Source: a virus (Duplodnaviria > Heunggongvirae > Uroviricota > Caudoviricetes). Taken from it: a stretch of 5,727 bases of DNA. The stretch lies in the IMG/VR virus record IMGVR_UViG_2706794678_000004; one strand, given 5' to 3'. Of the stretch, positions 1 to 5,727 are shown piece after piece; the stretch's first letter is position 1, and each line of letters begins with the position of its first letter. The position numbers and the translations under genes are program-made. The notes under the pieces are model-generated. The model worked only from the letters and a program-made list of their open reading frames with translations. It was not told where the DNA came from and made no database searches.

Positions 1-167
1 ACGGCAGCAAGCCAGTAATGGGTTAAGTGATAACAGGTGTCTGGAAATATAGGGGCAAATCCAGCGTTCATCAGCCCCCGCATTGCCGACAGGATCACAG
101 ACGGGGGGCGCAACTGGTTGTCGTTCAACTGGCCCAGCTACCGTTCTTGTATCAGAGGTGTGGCTGC

Positions 168-1559
168 ATGACAACACCAGTCTGGCGTAATGATGACCTG
201 GAAGGCGCTGTCATTGGCGCATTCTTTCTGCGTGGGGCAGATCATGAAGTGATGGATATTCTGATCACACTACCGGCGGACATTTTTTCTGTACGAGCGT
301 ATCGGGATATCTACACAGGCATCTGCAGACAGGCCCGTGTTTCAGGAGTGATTGACCCCGTGCTGTTGTGTAATGAGATGCCGGAACTTGCCCCGGTGAT
401 TACTGATACCGGGCGTAAAACCTGGGTGAAGTCTTCACTGGAGCACTATGTTGCAGCGTTGCGGCGCAATGCCGCACTGCGCGATGCAGAAAAAACACTG
501 AATGAGGCGCTGCAGAAATTACGTGATGCGCATACCTGTGAAGCAGCTGAAGATGCCCTGAAGGATGCGCAGAACATGATGGTCACACTGTCGACAGGAA
601 AGGGCGTCATTCAGCCGGTACATATTGATGATGTGCTTCCGGAAGTGGTTGAGCGTGTTGAATGCCGGAATCAGGGGCTGGAGAAATCCAGGACGTTGAT
701 GACCGGTATTGATGAACTGGACGCAAAAACAGGCGGTATGGAGCCCGGAGACCTGGTATTCATTGCCGCCCGTCCTTCGATGGGGAAAACCGAACTTGCG
801 CTGGACATCATCGACAAGGTGACTGAGCAGGGGCATGGTGTGCTTCTGTTCACCATGGAGATGGCGAACATCCAGATTGGTGAACGTATGGTGTCTGCGG
901 CTGGAGGGATGCCAGTATCACGCCTGAAATCTGTGGCTCACTTTGAAGATGAAGACTGGGCGCGTTTCTCACAAGGGGTGGGGCGGATGACCGGGCGCAA
1001 TATCTGGATGGTGGACCAGGCGAACCTGACCATTGATGAGATATGCGCAACAACGAAACACCATCTGATTAAACATCCGGAAACGGCGCTGGTGGTGGTT
1101 GATTATCTCGGGCTGATAAAAACCCGAACCACGGGGCGTCATGACCTTGCCGTGGGTGAAATCTCAAAGGGGCTTAAAGGCCTGGCAAAATCCGGTGGTT
1201 TTCCGTTGATTGCGCTGAGCCAGCTCTCCCGCGGTGTGGAGTCCAGACCCAATAAACGTCCCATGAACTCAGACCTGAAAAATTCCGGAGAAATAGAGGC
1301 GGATGCAGACATCATTCTGATGCTTTACAGGGATGAAGTGTACAACCCGGATACACAGGCTACAGGCATAGCAGAAATTAATATCACGAAACAACGTAAC
1401 GGTTCTCTGGGGACGATTTACCGGCGTTTTTATAACGGACATTTTCTGCCTGTGGACCAGGAAAGCGCACAGGTTCTTTCCACCCCAATGCGGCAGCCCC
1501 AGCCGCGCAGATACAGCAATACACGTACCGACAGCAGTAAGATGGAGCGTTTCTTTTGA
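168..1559 (+). CDS. Replicative DNA helicase, DnaB family (phage replication module)
   Basis: The reading frame is open from 27, but the ATG at 168 is preceded by AGAGGTG (154-160) at about 9 nt and gives 463 aa, a typical DnaB length. The 47 residues upstream are Cys/Arg/Gln-rich and unlike DnaB. Motifs read directly: 'DLVFIAARPSMGKTELALD' (Walker A-like), 'FEDEDWARFS', 'LIALSQLSRGVESRPNKRPMNSDLKNSGEIEADADIILMLYRDEVY' (DnaB C-terminal RecA-like domain). Stop TGA at 1557-1559. Confidence 0.85.
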   Translation: MTTPVWRNDDLEGAVIGAFFLRGADHEVMDILITLPADIFSVRAYRDIYTGICRQARVSGVIDPVLLCNEMPELAPVITDTGRKTWVKSSLEHYVAALRRNAALRDAEKTLNEALQKLRDAHTCEAAEDALKDAQNMMVTLSTGKGVIQPVHIDDVLPEVVERVECRNQGLEKSRTLMTGIDELDAKTGGMEPGDLVFIAARPSMGKTELALDIIDKVTEQGHGVLLFTMEMANIQIGERMVSAAGGMPVSRLKSVAHFEDEDWARFSQGVGRMTGRNIWMVDQANLTIDEICATTKHHLIKHPETALVVVDYLGLIKTRTTGRHDLAVGEISKGLKGLAKSGGFPLIALSQLSRGVESRPNKRPMNSDLKNSGEIEADADIILMLYRDEVYNPDTQATGIAEINITKQRNGSLGTIYRRFYNGHFLPVDQESAQVLSTPMRQPQPRRYSNTRTDSSKMERFF

Positions 1560-1813
1560 ACAACCAGACAATGACTTTTACCTCTGAACAATTGCGTAAA
1601 CACGCGCAGGAAATGTTGCGACAGGCGGAACAACTGGAAAAAACAGGTGTAACAAAAGATGCCATTCGTCGGGATATGGTGCCAGCGCTCAGGGAACTGA
1701 TGCAGGCGAAACATCGCGCACAAAAAGCGGTGGATGAGCTCGTTGATTGTGTGGCAGAGCTGGAAACCAAAGTTGGAAAGTTTGAAAAAATGGTGCAGGA
1801 GGTGCTGCGCTGA
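1556..1813 (+). CDS. Small hypothetical phage protein (predicted coiled-coil, 80-85 aa)
   Basis: ORF in the six-frame track. A TTG at 1556 overlaps the helicase stop (tTTGA) with GGAG at 1544-1547 about 8 nt upstream; the first ATG is at 1571 with no obvious SD. Charged, heptad-like composition (EQLRKHAQEMLRQAEQLEK...ELETKVGKFEKMVQEVL). Its stop TGA (1811-1813) overlaps the rusA ATG (TGATG). No family recognised. Confidence 0.5.
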   Translation: MNNQTMTFTSEQLRKHAQEMLRQAEQLEKTGVTKDAIRRDMVPALRELMQAKHRAQKAVDELVDCVAELETKVGKFEKMVQEVLR

Positions 1814-2184
1814 TGCGCCATGAGTTTATTTTACCTTATCCGCCGACGGTGAATACTTACTGGCGACGTCGTGGCAGCACATATTTTGTATCAAAAGTTG
1901 GTGAGCGTTATCGCCGTGATGTGACGCTAATTGTTCGCCAGCAGCGGCTGAAATTAAACCTGTCCGGAAGGCTGGCGATAAAGATTATTGCAGAGCCACC
2001 GGATAAGCGCCGTCGTGACCTGGACAATATCCTGAAAGCACCACTGGATGCGCTGACGCATGCCGGACTACTCATAGACGACGAGCAGTTTGATGAAATC
2101 AATATTGTGCGCGGTCAGCTCGTTCCTGGTGGGCGACTGGGCGTGAAGATTTATGAAATCACAGGTGATAACGATGGCGCGTGA
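1813..2184 (+). CDS. rusA: Crossover junction endodeoxyribonuclease RusA (Holliday junction resolvase)
   Basis: 123 aa; '[15 protein letters not shown]' and '[30 protein letters not shown]' closely resemble the E. coli RusA family as recalled (…DRRRRDLDN…DALT…DD). ATG at 1813 is coupled to the upstream stop. Confidence 0.9.
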
Positions 2185-2560
2185 TATTCAGCAGGTTATG
2201 GAACGGTGGGGGGCTTGGGCTGCAAACACTCATGAAGATGTATCCTGGGCGTCGATCGCTGCTGGTTTTAAAGGGTTAATTCCGTCGAAAGTGAAATCAC
2301 GCCCTCAGTGTTCTGATGATGATGCAATGATAATTTGTGGCTGTATGGCCCGGTTGAACAAGAAAAATCAGGATTTGCACGATTTGCTGGTGGATTATTA
2401 CGTAGGTGGAATGACTTTTATGAGTCTGGCACGGAAACATGGGTGTTCGGATACCTGTATTGGCAAGCGCCTGCAGAAAGCGGAAGGGGTTATTGATGGC
2501 ATGTTGATGATGCTTGATATCCGGCTGGAGATGGACAGATACGTAGAACGAATTATGTAG
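2174..2560 (+). CDS. Q: Late-gene antitermination protein Q (small QuuD/YbcQ-type)
   Basis: The ATG at 2174 is preceded by AGGTGA (2163-2168) and overlaps the rusA 3' end by 11 nt. 128 aa '[61 protein letters not shown]...[26 protein letters not shown]' matches the DLP12 QuuD-type Q antiterminator as recalled. Position immediately upstream of a promoter/terminator pair and the lysis module fits. The track ORF start at 2153 lies inside rusA and is less likely. Confidence 0.85.
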
Positions 2561-2564
2561 GTGC

Positions 2565-2594
2565 TTGACCAGACACATTGTCCGGGGCTATATT
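2565..2594 (+). promoter_or_regulatory. Candidate late promoter (PR'-like): TTGACC-18 nt-TATATT
   Basis: -35 TTGACC at 2565-2570, 18-nt spacer, -10 TATATT at 2589-2594, starting 5 nt after the Q stop codon. Predicted transcript start near 2601-2603; the leader begins with hairpin CGCCAG-caaaat-CTGGCG (2602-2619). Confidence 0.45.
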
Positions 2595-2655
2595 CCTCAC
2601 GCGCCAGCAAAATCTGGCGTCGGGATTGGAACCCCGGATAGAGACCGCGACAGAC

Positions 2656-2680
2656 ACACGCCGCGAGCGTGTTTTTTATT
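2656..2680 (+). terminator. Intrinsic terminator (tR'-like) ending a ~75 nt leader RNA
   Basis: Stem ACACGC (2656-2661), loop cgcga, stem GCGTGT (2667-2672), followed by a run of six T then ATT (2672-2680). Confidence 0.5.
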
Positions 2681-2805
2681 GTCGTATGCACGCGCACATC
2701 TGAATTATGGTGGGGCGCATGGGGGAGCTGAAAAGCTCGCCGGTCGGTTTCCCGGTAGTTCCAACCCTGTGCGTCTCACCACCCGATGATTGGAACCTGA
2801 CGGTG

Positions 2806-2834
2806 TTGACAGTTTCAGGTTTGCAGTTTACATT
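2806..2834 (+). promoter_or_regulatory. Second candidate sigma70 promoter (consensus -35 TTGACA)
   Basis: TTGACA at 2806-2811, 17-nt spacer, TACATT at 2829-2834 (4/6 match to TATAAT). Function unclear; it may be the true late promoter or a promoter for the downstream ORF6N gene. Confidence 0.3.
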
Positions 2835-2869
2835 TCCCCGCGGTGCTCAAAACACCTCGAAAGCGGTAT

Positions 2870-2897
2870 CCACACCCGATAGCCATGTGGTTTTTTT
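2870..2897 (+). terminator. Candidate intrinsic terminator
   Basis: CCACA (2870-2874) ... TGTGG (2886-2890) stem with an 11-nt loop, followed by seven T (2891-2897). The loop is longer than ideal. Confidence 0.35.
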
Positions 2898-3040
2898 GTG
2901 TCCAGAATTCTTGGTTTATGACCGGGTGTGCGGCTAATACAATACCAGCAATGGAAATACGCCCGCCGACTTTCGACGGTTTTGAGCGCCCGGTCACCCT
3001 CTCAAAAGGGGTAAATCAAAATATTCGAAAGGACATGTCT

Positions 3041-3604
3041 ATGAATCGCACGTCTATTGAAAAACTCCCGTCACTTACGCATAACCATCTTCCTGTCATG
3101 ACAACAGAGCTGCTGGCTGATTTGTACGGAACAGAGCGCCAGCGTTTGACAAACAATTTCAATCGAAACAAAGAACGGTTTATAGAAGGTAAACATTTTT
3201 TCCTGATAGAAGGTGATGCGTTACGAGAGTTGAAGAACGAAAACTCTTTAAGAGTTTCTGTGAAAATTGCCCGTAACGTTCGCTCCCTCATCCTCTGGAC
3301 AGAACGTGGCGCAGCCCGTCACGCCAAAATGCTCGAAACCGATCAGGCGTGGGAAGTGTTCGAAAAACTGGAAGACTGTTATTTCAACCAGAAACAGCCA
3401 CCAGCGGCACAAAACACATCTATCGAAAATGATGGATGCGCATTACTGAGCCACTTCGATAAACACGGTCAGGTTGAGTTCACGGAAAAGGTACCCGCCG
3501 ATGCGATGGTATGTACTCTGGAACGGTTTAAATTTTATCTGGAGCAACACGGGTGGATCGTTGCCCGTAAAGAGCAACTGGTGGAGCGGTTGATGCGGTT
3601 TTAA
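3041..3604 (+). CDS. ORF6N-domain protein (phage antirepressor / Rha-like DNA-binding family), 187 aa
   Basis: The ATG at 3041 is preceded by AAGGA (3027-3031) at 9 nt; the 66 codons upstream in the same frame (from 2843) are Cys/Trp-rich and overlap the promoter/terminator region. 'LPVMTTELLADLYGTERQRLTNNFNRNKERFIEGKHFFLIEGDALRELK...LWTERGAARHAKMLETDQAWEVFEKLEDCYF' matches the ORF6N domain pattern as recalled (V-LDsdLAeLYG-etk-LN--v-RN--RF-e-F-L---E...fTE-Ga--ls--l-sd-A). Stop TAA at 3602-3604. Confidence 0.65.
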   Translation: MNRTSIEKLPSLTHNHLPVMTTELLADLYGTERQRLTNNFNRNKERFIEGKHFFLIEGDALRELKNENSLRVSVKIARNVRSLILWTERGAARHAKMLETDQAWEVFEKLEDCYFNQKQPPAAQNTSIENDGCALLSHFDKHGQVEFTEKVPADAMVCTLERFKFYLEQHGWIVARKEQLVERLMRF

Positions 3605-3680
3605 AAATTTTTTCCGAAAACTTTACGATCGTAAAAAGTTGAATATCCTGTTAAGAGTGGTTACTACGCCACACAGCTTA

Positions 3681-3705
3681 AACCCGCCGATGAGCGGGTT
3701 TTTTT
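3681..3705 (+). terminator. Intrinsic terminator downstream of the ORF6N gene
   Basis: AAACCCGC (3681-3687 core CCCGC), loop cgatga, GCGGG (3694-3698), followed by seven T (3699-3705). Confidence 0.65.
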
Positions 3706-3755
3706 ATACCTGAAAAACGGCACAGGACGTTAAACGTGCTGGTGGTCAGATGAGT

Positions 3756-3784
3756 TTGCAGATGTGATGACATATGGTTATTAT
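3756..3784 (+). promoter_or_regulatory. Candidate promoter for the tRNA array
   Basis: TTGCAG (3756-3761), 17-nt spacer, TATTAT (3779-3784); the -10 ends 9 nt before the first tRNA 5' end (3794). Confidence 0.3.
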
Positions 3785-3793
3785 TCTGCCTCC

Positions 3794-3870
3794 GGCCCTT
3801 TAGCTCAGTTGGTCAGAGCGAGCGACTCATAATCGCCAGGTCGCTGGTTCAAGTCCAGCAAGGGCCACCA
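3794..3870 (+). tRNA. ileZ: tRNA-Ile2 (anticodon CAT, lysidine type; ileX/ileZ-like), CCA encoded
   Basis: Cloverleaf read by hand: acceptor GGCCCTT/AAGGGCC, D-stem GCTC/GAGC, anticodon loop CTCATAA (CAT at 3828-3830), T-arm GCTGG-TTCAAGT-CCAGC, discriminator A, CCA 3868-3870. Closely resembles E. coli ileX as recalled; tRNA-Met cannot be excluded from the anticodon alone. Confidence 0.85.
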
Positions 3871-3871
3871 A

Positions 3872-3948
3872 CCACCACTAGCTCATCCGGATAGAGCATC
3901 AACCTTCTAAGTTGACGGTGCGAGGTTCGAGTCCTCGGTGGTGGGCCA
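3872..3948 (+). tRNA. argN: tRNA-Arg (anticodon TCT), CCA encoded
   Basis: Acceptor CCACCAC/GTGGTGG (unusual C1-G72), D-stem GCTC/GAGC, anticodon stem TCAAC/GTTGA with loop CTTCTAA (TCT at 3906-3908), T-arm CGAGG-TTCGAGT-CCTCG, discriminator G, CCA 3946-3948. Confidence 0.8.
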
Positions 3949-3950
3949 GC

Positions 3951-4026
<76 letters not shown>

Positions 4027-4029
4027 TAT

Positions 4030-4104
<75 letters not shown>

Positions 4105-4548
4105 GCGAGATTTGAGACGAAGGTTGTTATTTGCACTGACACAATATTGTGTGGGAATGTCTGACTCCTTACCATCTCCTGTTCTGTGATGTTGTTTTGT
4201 TGCAGTTCCAGTGCTCTTTTTTCAGCACCAGAATGGTGCATTGTCGGTCAGGTTACGTAGTGAACCTCTGGCAGGGGACTGATGATTCATCATTCTGGTG
4301 TTGTAAATATCTCTTCGGACAACTTACAAAATATTCTAAGCAAACCCCGGGAACACACTCTTAACTGCCTTGGCTGGCGGTTTTTTGTACAGCGCTCGGT
4401 ATGTGTGAGCTGGAAATCAGATTTTGCATGGACTGGAATCATGCTGTTATTTAGGGGCGAAGAACTGGCTTTTTCTTCCGCCTTCTCACCAGTAACGATT
4501 AGAAAAATAATGAAATGCCCCCCTCCGGGGAGGAGGACCGTAGAAAAA

Positions 4549-4811
4549 NNNNNNNNNNNNNNNNNNNNNNNNNNNNNNNNNNNNNNNNNNNNNNNNNNNN
4601 NNNNNNNNNNNNNNNNNNNNNNNNNNNNNNNNNNNNNNNNNNNNNNNNNNNNNNNNNNNNNNNNNNNNNNNNNNNNNNNNNNNNNNNNNNNNNNNNNNNN
4701 NNNNNNNNNNNNNNNNNNNNNNNNNNNNNNNNNNNNNNNNNNNNNNNNNNNNNNNNNNNNNNNNNNNNNNNNNNNNNNNNNNNNNNNNNNNNNNNNNNNN
4801 NNNNNNNNNNN
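4549..4811. other. Run of 263 N (assembly/scaffold gap or masked sequence)
   Basis: Uninterrupted n characters. All track ORFs crossing it (4282-4845 +, 4290-4823 -, 4515-4853 +, and the X-containing part of 4486-4992 -) are artefacts inside the N run. Confidence 0.99.
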
Positions 4812-4992
4812 GTATCTGACCATGTTGTTTCAGGTCAGATATTAGCGACCTGAGTTTGTTTTCGTCGTTGGGTAATGCTTTATCGAACAGGCGTTTACCT
4901 GAACGATTAATGGCAACAGCGTGATGCGTATCTTTACCGACATCAACGCCGATAAAGACCTGGACGGATTCGTAATCGCTGGATTCGGTCAT
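4812..4992 (-). CDS. IS110-family (DEDD/Piv-type) transposase-recombinase, N-terminal 60 codons only (5' partial; rest lost in the N run)
   Basis: Minus-strand ATG (complement of 4990-4992) with GGGAG SD about 6 nt upstream. 'MTESSDYESVQVFIGVDVGKDTHHAVAINRSGKRLFDKALPNDENKLRSLISDLKQHG' has the IS110-family N-terminal signature (hydrophobic-G-[IV]-D-V-[GS]-K with the first catalytic Asp, then NDE..L..L as in IS900/IS110 recalled). Confidence 0.7.
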
Positions 4993-5205
4993 TCTGTCTC
5001 CCTTGTATATGGGTTAACCAGATAACCACGGGGAGCAGGTACCGGCATCCACGTTACAGACGGTCCCGGCAAAAGTGCCTGACCTGACCCCTATTAGCGG
5101 TTACCAGCGCCCCACCAGACCCGGTGACATCACCCCCCGGATCATGGACGACTGGGGGCAGTAATCATGCCGGGTCTGGCTGGCTAACACCCCATTATAA
5201 GGGGT
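4812..5205 (-). mobile_element. IS110-family insertion sequence, partial (recombinase 5' end plus upstream non-coding end); boundaries not determinable
   Basis: Recombinase N-terminus plus about 200 nt of GC-rich, stem-rich sequence upstream of it (4993 to about 5205). IS110 elements lack terminal inverted repeats, so the junction with phage DNA before the holin start (5230) cannot be placed by eye. Confidence 0.4.
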
Positions 5206-5229
5206 ACGAATAAAGTAACGGGGCGGGAT

Positions 5230-5445
5230 ATGTATCAGATGGAAAAAATATCAACAGGCATTGCCTACGGCACCTCCGCCGGCAGTGCCGGCTACTGGTT
5301 TTTGCAGTGGTTGGATCAGGTCAGTCCATCACAGTGGGCTGCGATTGGTGTGCTGGGAAGTCTGCTTCTGGGGCTTCTGACTTATCTGACAAATCTGTAT
5401 TTCAAAATAAGAGAAGACAAGCGTAAGGCTGCGAGAGGTGAATAA
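5230..5445 (+). CDS. S: Class II holin, S21-type pinholin with dual start (Met1/Met4)
   Basis: 71 aa '[71 protein letters not shown]' is near-identical to the phage 21 S21 pinholin as recalled. Two TMDs, with a Gly/Ala/Ser-rich TMD1. Stop TAA at 5443-5445 overlaps the next ATG (TAATG). Confidence 0.9.
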
Positions 5446-5727
5446 TGTCGCCATCATTACGCAAGGCTGTTGCAGCTGCTATTGGTGGTGGGGCTGTTGC
5501 TATAGCATCTGTGTTAATCACTGGCCCAGGTGGTAACGATGGTCTGGAAGGTGTCAGCTACATACCATACAAAGATATCATTGGTGTATGGACTGTATGT
5601 CACGGACACACCGGAAAAGACATCATGCTCGGTAAAACGTATACCGAAGCAGAATGCAAAGCCCTCCTGAATAAAGACCTTGCCACTGTCGCCAGACAAA
5701 TTAACCCGTACATCAAAGTCGATATAC
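5445..5727 (+). CDS. R: SAR endolysin (R21-like lysozyme), 3' truncated by window end
   Basis: Hand translation from the ATG at 5445: '[94 protein letters not shown]'. The N-terminal Gly/Ala-rich weakly hydrophobic segment is a signal-anchor-release (SAR) domain, followed by a lysozyme domain start resembling phage 21 R as recalled. It is absent from the ORF track because no stop lies within the window. Confidence 0.85.

Follow-up and report, generated by a model that had tools for sequence, protein, structure and literature searches.

In insertion sequences (ISs) of the IS110 family, a non-coding RNA encoded beside the recombinase gene recognises both the target and the element's own ends. 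One member of this family, IS621, has reportedly been described together with its bridge RNA by Durrant et al. 2024 and Hiraizumi et al. 2024. ISEc20 is one of 12 ISs in Shigella sonnei 53G; for the species, Hawkey et al. list 13 ISEc20 positions in their ISMapper table, and, among the rows examined, ~8 of these 13 positions are occupied in nearly all isolates shown (PMC7373316).

We analysed a window of 5,727 nt (by which we mean the whole stretch of DNA under study) that is interrupted at positions 4549-4811 by 263 Ns, the sole N run that it contains. An earlier note on this DNA had described the run as lying beside a truncated recombinase gene, and both the coordinates and the 60 codons visible at its edge agree with that description. 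Taken together, our data suggest that the N run is probably an undersized assembly gap within an intact copy of ISEc20, located upstream of a prophage holin gene. It would then be a data artefact of a kind already known. The features of the window to which we refer are as follows.

168-1559: gene for a DnaB-like helicase
1813-2184: RusA gene
2174-2560: gene for a Q-type antiterminator
3041-3604: ORF6N gene
3794-4104, plus strand: four prophage tRNA genes, with anticodons CAT, TCT, TGT and TCC
4105-4548, plus strand: intergenic prophage backbone from the tRNA cluster to the gap, not part of the IS (100% identity to S. sonnei 53G and six complete chromosomes)
4549-4811, no strand: N run, with an expected hidden content of ~1,271 bp (coordinates, and the sequence of three relatives)
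4812-4992, minus strand: 5′ part of the ISEc20 recombinase gene (60 codons and 1 base), encoding the start of the DEDD/RuvC-like domain (open reading frame, PF01548, and 100% identity with annotated ISEc20)
4993-5219, minus strand: 227-nt non-coding end of ISEc20 (left end, LE) upstream of the recombinase gene, a candidate bridge RNA (100% identity to ISEc20, predicted fold)
5220-5223, no strand: GGGG, what is left of a G7 target run where the IS meets the prophage, 6 bases before the start codon of the holin gene
5230-5445, plus strand: class II holin gene, directly downstream of the IS (Pfam PF04971 on an identical product, RefSeq annotation)
5445-5727, plus strand: 5′ part of a phage lysozyme gene, truncated by the window end (PF00959 on a homologous product)

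Judged from its sequence, the window belongs to a defective lambdoid prophage of the S. sonnei type and spans its replication, late-control and lysis region. Positions 1-4548 and 5220-5727 are 100% identical to, and collinear and co-oriented with, the chromosome of S. sonnei 53G (HE616528.1), and the same locus was found at 100% identity in six further complete chromosomes; in all of these, 53G included, the two parts of the window lie only 226 bp apart. Because the flanks are collinear, co-oriented and this close together in finished genomes, the two contigs that make up the window must have been joined in the right order and orientation. The backbone at 4105-4548 is in addition 99.2% identical to E. 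coli VL40. In its empty form, the site consists of 226 bp followed by seven G and the holin gene; it reads ...GTCTGTCGGGGGGGCGGGATATG, whose final ATG is the holin start codon, and the 226 bp are non-coding in all complete genomes examined.

Elsewhere in the window, four strong Rfam matches stand in a row at 2588-3003, from the Q-like gene to the ORF6N gene (c4-a1b1, 2588-2640; isrK, 2601-2677, 77.5 bits; C4 antisense RNA, 2703-2786, 71 bits; sRNA-Xcc1, 2920-3003, 77.4 bits). This row looks like a C4 antisense immunity module of the P1/P7 type, which would control the antirepressor-like gene downstream. The first tRNA gene (3794-3870) was called Met (CAT) by ARAGORN, and a 99%-similar gene is annotated in RefSeq as tRNA-Ile; this Met/Ile ambiguity is usual for the CAT anticodon, which may be lysidine-modified. 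At the left end of the window, positions 1-52 are the 3′ end of an IS3-family transposase gene, and the scaffold opens at a repeat. In S. sonnei chromosomes, 115 bp lie between the end of this transposase gene and the DnaB-like gene downstream of it, and the prophage is riddled with ISs.

On the minus strand, an open reading frame starts with the ATG at 4992-4990 and enters the N run at 4812, leaving 181 bases visible (60 codons plus 1 base), whose product reads MTESSDYESV...LKQHGQI. This 60-aa peptide matched Pfam PF01548 (DEDD_Tnp_IS110) with E = 5.6e-12 over residues 14-59. Since the match is limited to profile positions 1-47 of 155, the visible part represents the N-terminal third of the first domain only. 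At the DNA level, 408 bp of the window (4812-5219) are 100% identical to the recombinase-proximal end of ISEc20. RefSeq loci that carry the annotation 'IS110-like element ISEc20 family transposase' are likewise 100% identical over 408-412 bp, 1,299 records match this end at 99% identity or above, and GenBank phage records label the element 'IS110 family ISEc20'. The earlier reading of the peptide as an IS110-family recombinase is therefore confirmed, and the element can be named as ISEc20 (IS110 family, IS110 group) from the DNA identity. We compared six ISEc20 copies, all of which measure 1,449 bp between the flanking G runs, are free of passenger genes, and vary at six positions, none of them near the break at 4812. 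The element so defined carries a recombinase gene of 1,197 bp (398 aa) preceded by a 227-nt non-coding stretch.

With so few codons of a 1,197-bp gene visible, ~1,016 bp of coding sequence are missing, which is beyond the capacity of 263 bases. The argument of the earlier note that the gap is too small for the rest of the gene is borne out by this figure and by the spacing in relatives described below. A program-made list of open reading frames nevertheless gives a minus-strand frame running through the Ns (4486-4992, including the stop codon TGA at 4488-4486). This stop had been placed at 4483-4485, that is, off by 3. Because 263 is not divisible by 3 and is probably not the true length, reading the same frame through the Ns is meaningless, and so is the 168-codon frame that appears to bridge the gap; no database record was found for its product. 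The peptide to the left of the gap (...FFYGPPPRRGAFHYFSNRYW) is translated non-coding prophage backbone. It had been rightly judged not to be transposase-like, as is to be expected of a translation of intergenic prophage DNA; this DNA is not the far side of the gene, and its 100% identity to S. sonnei 53G places it in the prophage.

We then judged the hidden sequence from related loci. A 30-mer spanning the IS-holin junction matched four non-identical contigs in IMG/VR (viral_contigs), L004 to L007, with 0 matches in genome_contigs and 0 in metagenome_contigs. A search with the opposite IS junction added one contig, L044, which shares only that junction. The sequences at the two edges of the gap, GGAGGAGGACCGTAGAAAAA and GTATCTGACCATGTTGTTTC, are both present as identical 20-mers in L005, L006 and L044, where they are separated by 1,271 bp, 1,272 bp and 1,271 bp, respectively. 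The initial 230 bp of the fill in L005 are 100% identical to the empty site and the rest is 99.8% identical to ISEc20; the 230-bp backbone segment is kept in all three insertion-bearing contigs, and no gene other than that of the IS was found in their fill. When the fill of L005 was spliced into the window, an uninterrupted open reading frame of 398 aa resulted, with matches to PF01548 (E = 6.9e-49, over the whole domain) and PF02371 (Transposase_20; E = 7.1e-22), the latter being seen in the reconstruction and so reflecting the coding of an intact copy at this site, not that of the source strain. PF02371 is the C-terminal Transposase_20 domain, which bears the catalytic serine.

As these relatives hold 1,271-1,272 bp at the site, the N run would be ~1,008 bp too short, unless the element is truncated, for which there was no evidence. 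We infer that the source strain has the same content as the relatives. The true stretch is most likely ~1,271 bp long, made up of 230 bp of prophage backbone and, from ISEc20, ~1,041 bp with the far end of the element and 338 codons of the recombinase gene, and nothing else. The earlier note had counted the rest of the recombinase gene as missing; ~230 bp of prophage backbone probably have to be added to it.

How the Ns arose can be pictured as follows. A copy of ISEc20 would have inserted into the G7 run that lies 6-10 bases ahead of the holin start codon, so that the recombinase gene of the IS reads away from the holin. With ISEc20 present in many copies in the lineage, an assembler would be unable to extend a contig through it and would have halted there; a scaffolder would then have joined contigs 1-4548 and 4812-5727 and written the unresolved stretch between them as 263 N, a value that would be an estimate and no measurement. 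We infer from several observations that the Ns arose in this way, by scaffolding. Two draft contigs of the same region, L016 (5,424 bp) and L017 (5,243 bp), have their ends within ~130 bp of the window's ends, which makes the window look like a complete, repeat-bounded short-read scaffold. Two of the contigs with the IS-holin junction begin inside the element (L004 132 bp and L007 1,075 bp into the IS), showing that these assemblies were also broken within ISEc20. A length of 263 is neither round nor a conventional placeholder and is typical of a scaffolder's distance estimate. The earlier suggestion of a collapsed multi-copy IS repeat fits the multiple copies of ISEc20 in S. sonnei (PMC7373316).

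Some details count against a scaffold gap. The left contig stops at 4548, 226-230 bp before the IS and in unique DNA; the sequence past this point is single-copy and assembles readily in other S. sonnei drafts. The right contig, for its part, reaches 408 bp into a multi-copy element. A mosaic boundary was considered as the reason for the left end at 4548 and rejected, because every related locus runs on unbroken, and a difference between copies was rejected as the reason for the right end at 4812, with none of the six variable positions lying near it. For a paired-end library, 1,008 bp is a big underestimate; it could arise where the gap is spanned by none but the longest inserts, or where both edges were extended by gap-filling. 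Our conjecture is that read-pair-guided, partial gap-filling from both edges would leave arbitrary stops and an unreliable N count. The Ns may also be a deliberate mask, but all other loci that we examined show this IS and this backbone without masking, which makes a mask based on content unlikely. The result matters mostly for quality control: the N count is unusable as a length, and nothing should be deduced about the gene content at 4549-4811 beyond the rest of a known IS.

The fact that the left contig halts exactly at the start of the hidden backbone, for which a simple repeat collapse does not account, would be explained by a real gap with a more complex structure. In one form, the 230-bp backbone segment would have been deleted next to ISEc20 (~1,041 bp missing); in another, an IS-holin contig from a different prophage copy would have been mis-scaffolded through shared sequence. 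L044 and the PPompW prophages indeed carry unrelated DNA at the recombinase-proximal side of ISEc20, PPompW being without lysis genes, so that rearrangements beside ISEc20 do occur. However, both flanks of the window are 100% identical to and collinear with a single S. sonnei locus, and the 230-bp segment is retained in each of the three relatives. To our knowledge, recombination by IS110-family elements is not expected to cause adjacent deletions. We regard a complex structure as unlikely.

The arithmetic of the gap also permits a true N length, as would result from base-for-base masking, over a genuine remnant of ISEc20. In that case ~230 bp of backbone and ~33 bp of the far IS end would make up the 263 bases and, with the 408 visible bp, define an internal deletion of 1,008 bp, a number divisible by 3. 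Truncated or frameshifted N-terminal open reading frames of ISEc20 are common in public data, and deliberately masked stretches occur in some sequence collections. Against this, a search with the 60-aa fragment returned 58 short open reading frame sequences, and 0 of the 17 inspected is cut at or just after residue 60. Genomic contexts were looked up for two of them: P0001 occurs in plasmid-like surroundings or beside a lymphostatin-like gene, and P0007 is interrupted by a Tn3-family transposase gene; neither is by a holin. As judged by eye from the sequences, no direct repeat is suitably placed for a 1,008-bp deletion, and the in-frame length is a coincidence with a one-in-three chance. When the two edge sequences were searched with a spacer of N{250,280}, there were 0 matches in viral_contigs, so that no contig in that collection has 250-280 bp separating the edges. 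A true-length remnant is, in our view, quite unlikely.

We consider it very unlikely that the gap hides something else, such as a prophage late region that was deleted or rearranged in association with the IS, or an internally deleted derivative of ISEc20. In Stx phages, toxin genes are located between the tRNA cluster and the lysis genes, and the earlier note had raised the possibility of a cargo gene under the Ns. Passenger or cargo DNA within or beside the IS has nothing in its favour except that the content is unseen, and it is extremely improbable: at the empty site, all complete genomes examined have just 226 bp, which are non-coding, the three occupied relatives carry backbone and IS alone, and none of the six compared ISEc20 copies departs from 1,449 bp or has a passenger. 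A toxin or other cargo at the stx position of Stx phages was rejected because of the empty sites and the three occupied relatives.

The IS-prophage junction lies at 5219/5220, where GGGG is followed by CGGGAT and the holin ATG. The occupied site has G6 at one side of the IS and G4 at the other, and the empty site has G7. G runs were seen at both junctions in all of five different ISEc20 sites, with G6-7 on one side and G2-5 on the other; ISEc20 thus has a sequence-specific target and produces no long target-site duplication. We note that the G7 target run (window 5220-5232; L001 5170-5189) probably serves as the ribosome-binding region for the holin gene, the product of which starts M-Y-Q-M.

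In the complete E. coli RefSeq genomes that we searched, the insertion upstream of the holin was not found: the best-matching place covers 59% of the query, a smaller share than any place with the IS-holin junction beside the left flank would give. The complete S. sonnei-type chromosomes that we saw lack the insertion too. All four contigs with the IS-holin junction (L004 to L007) share flank variants at positions corresponding to 5391 and 5418 of the window, and the two that reach to the left of the gap (L005 and L006) also share variants at 4284, 4287 and 4393. The window has none of these variants, and its flanks are purely of the S. sonnei type. This suggested independent insertions at the same site, and the simplest reading of the flanking sequences is that the same G7 site would have been struck separately in the S. 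sonnei lineage, although recombination close to the IS may have produced the pattern instead of a separate insertion. We mildly favour the view that the G7 run at the holin start is a recurrent RNA-guided target of ISEc20, hit independently across prophage lineages and repeatedly uncoupling the lysis genes from late transcription. What the window adds is one more polymorphic ISEc20 insertion in an S. sonnei-type genome, lying between the lysis cassette of a decayed prophage and its late-transcription region, in agreement with the known expansion of ISs in Shigella.

In two records (L018, the PPompW prophage LC567818.1, at 1842-3300, and L044 at 1650-3100), ISEc20 lies past the prophage tRNA cluster and is oriented as in the window, but the DNA that adjoins its recombinase-proximal side is unrelated. 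In PPompW, the lysis genes are missing and the terminase genes follow directly, an arrangement that may represent an IS-associated loss of the lysis cassette. Separately, in the ISEc20 rows of supplementary file 9 of PMC7373316, the left and right flank coordinates are 69-399 bp apart and not a few bp. Within these rows, several of the differences are ~255-257 bp, near the summed non-coding ends of ISEc20, and the offsets would fit a removal of only the open reading frame from the 'IS-free' reference used in PMC7373316.

For the 227-nt non-coding end of ISEc20, the predicted fold has two large stem-loops (minimum free energy of -98.3 kcal/mol, z = -2.55). The first stem-loop contains GCCCCC and CGGGGGG, which match the G/C-run target over 6-7 nt. 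In the second, TAATAGGGG matches over 9 nt the bases with which the opposite IS end closes, and GTAACG (6 nt) complements the C preceding this end together with its first five bases (GTTAC). By analogy with the family, we regard this end as a candidate bridge RNA. Because the putative guide matches are short (6-9 nt) and lie in G/C-rich sequence, and Rfam has no family matching the 227-nt end, the likeness is suggestive only.

Compared with known copies of ISEc20, the window displays only 28% of the element, the remainder being N. What is visible agrees with the ISEc20 copies in E. coli, Shigella and Stx/PPompW prophage records, which have the same 227-nt non-coding end followed by the start of the recombinase gene, and the G-run type of target is common to the copy in the window and those in E. 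coli FDAARGOS_944, Nissle 1917 and PPompW. IS621 is a different element; as in IS621, a putative non-coding RNA region lies upstream of the recombinase gene and has two predicted stem-loops, one with short matches to the target and the other with short matches to both IS ends. The N run itself resembles known scaffold gaps at collapsed ISs in short-read assemblies of Shigella and E. coli in being unbroken and of non-conventional length, in separating contigs that are neighbours in finished genomes, and in having a multi-copy element at the gap and other repeats at the scaffold ends. It differs from them in that its left break lies 230 bp outside the repeat, its right break 408 bp inside, and its stated size is probably ~1 kb short.
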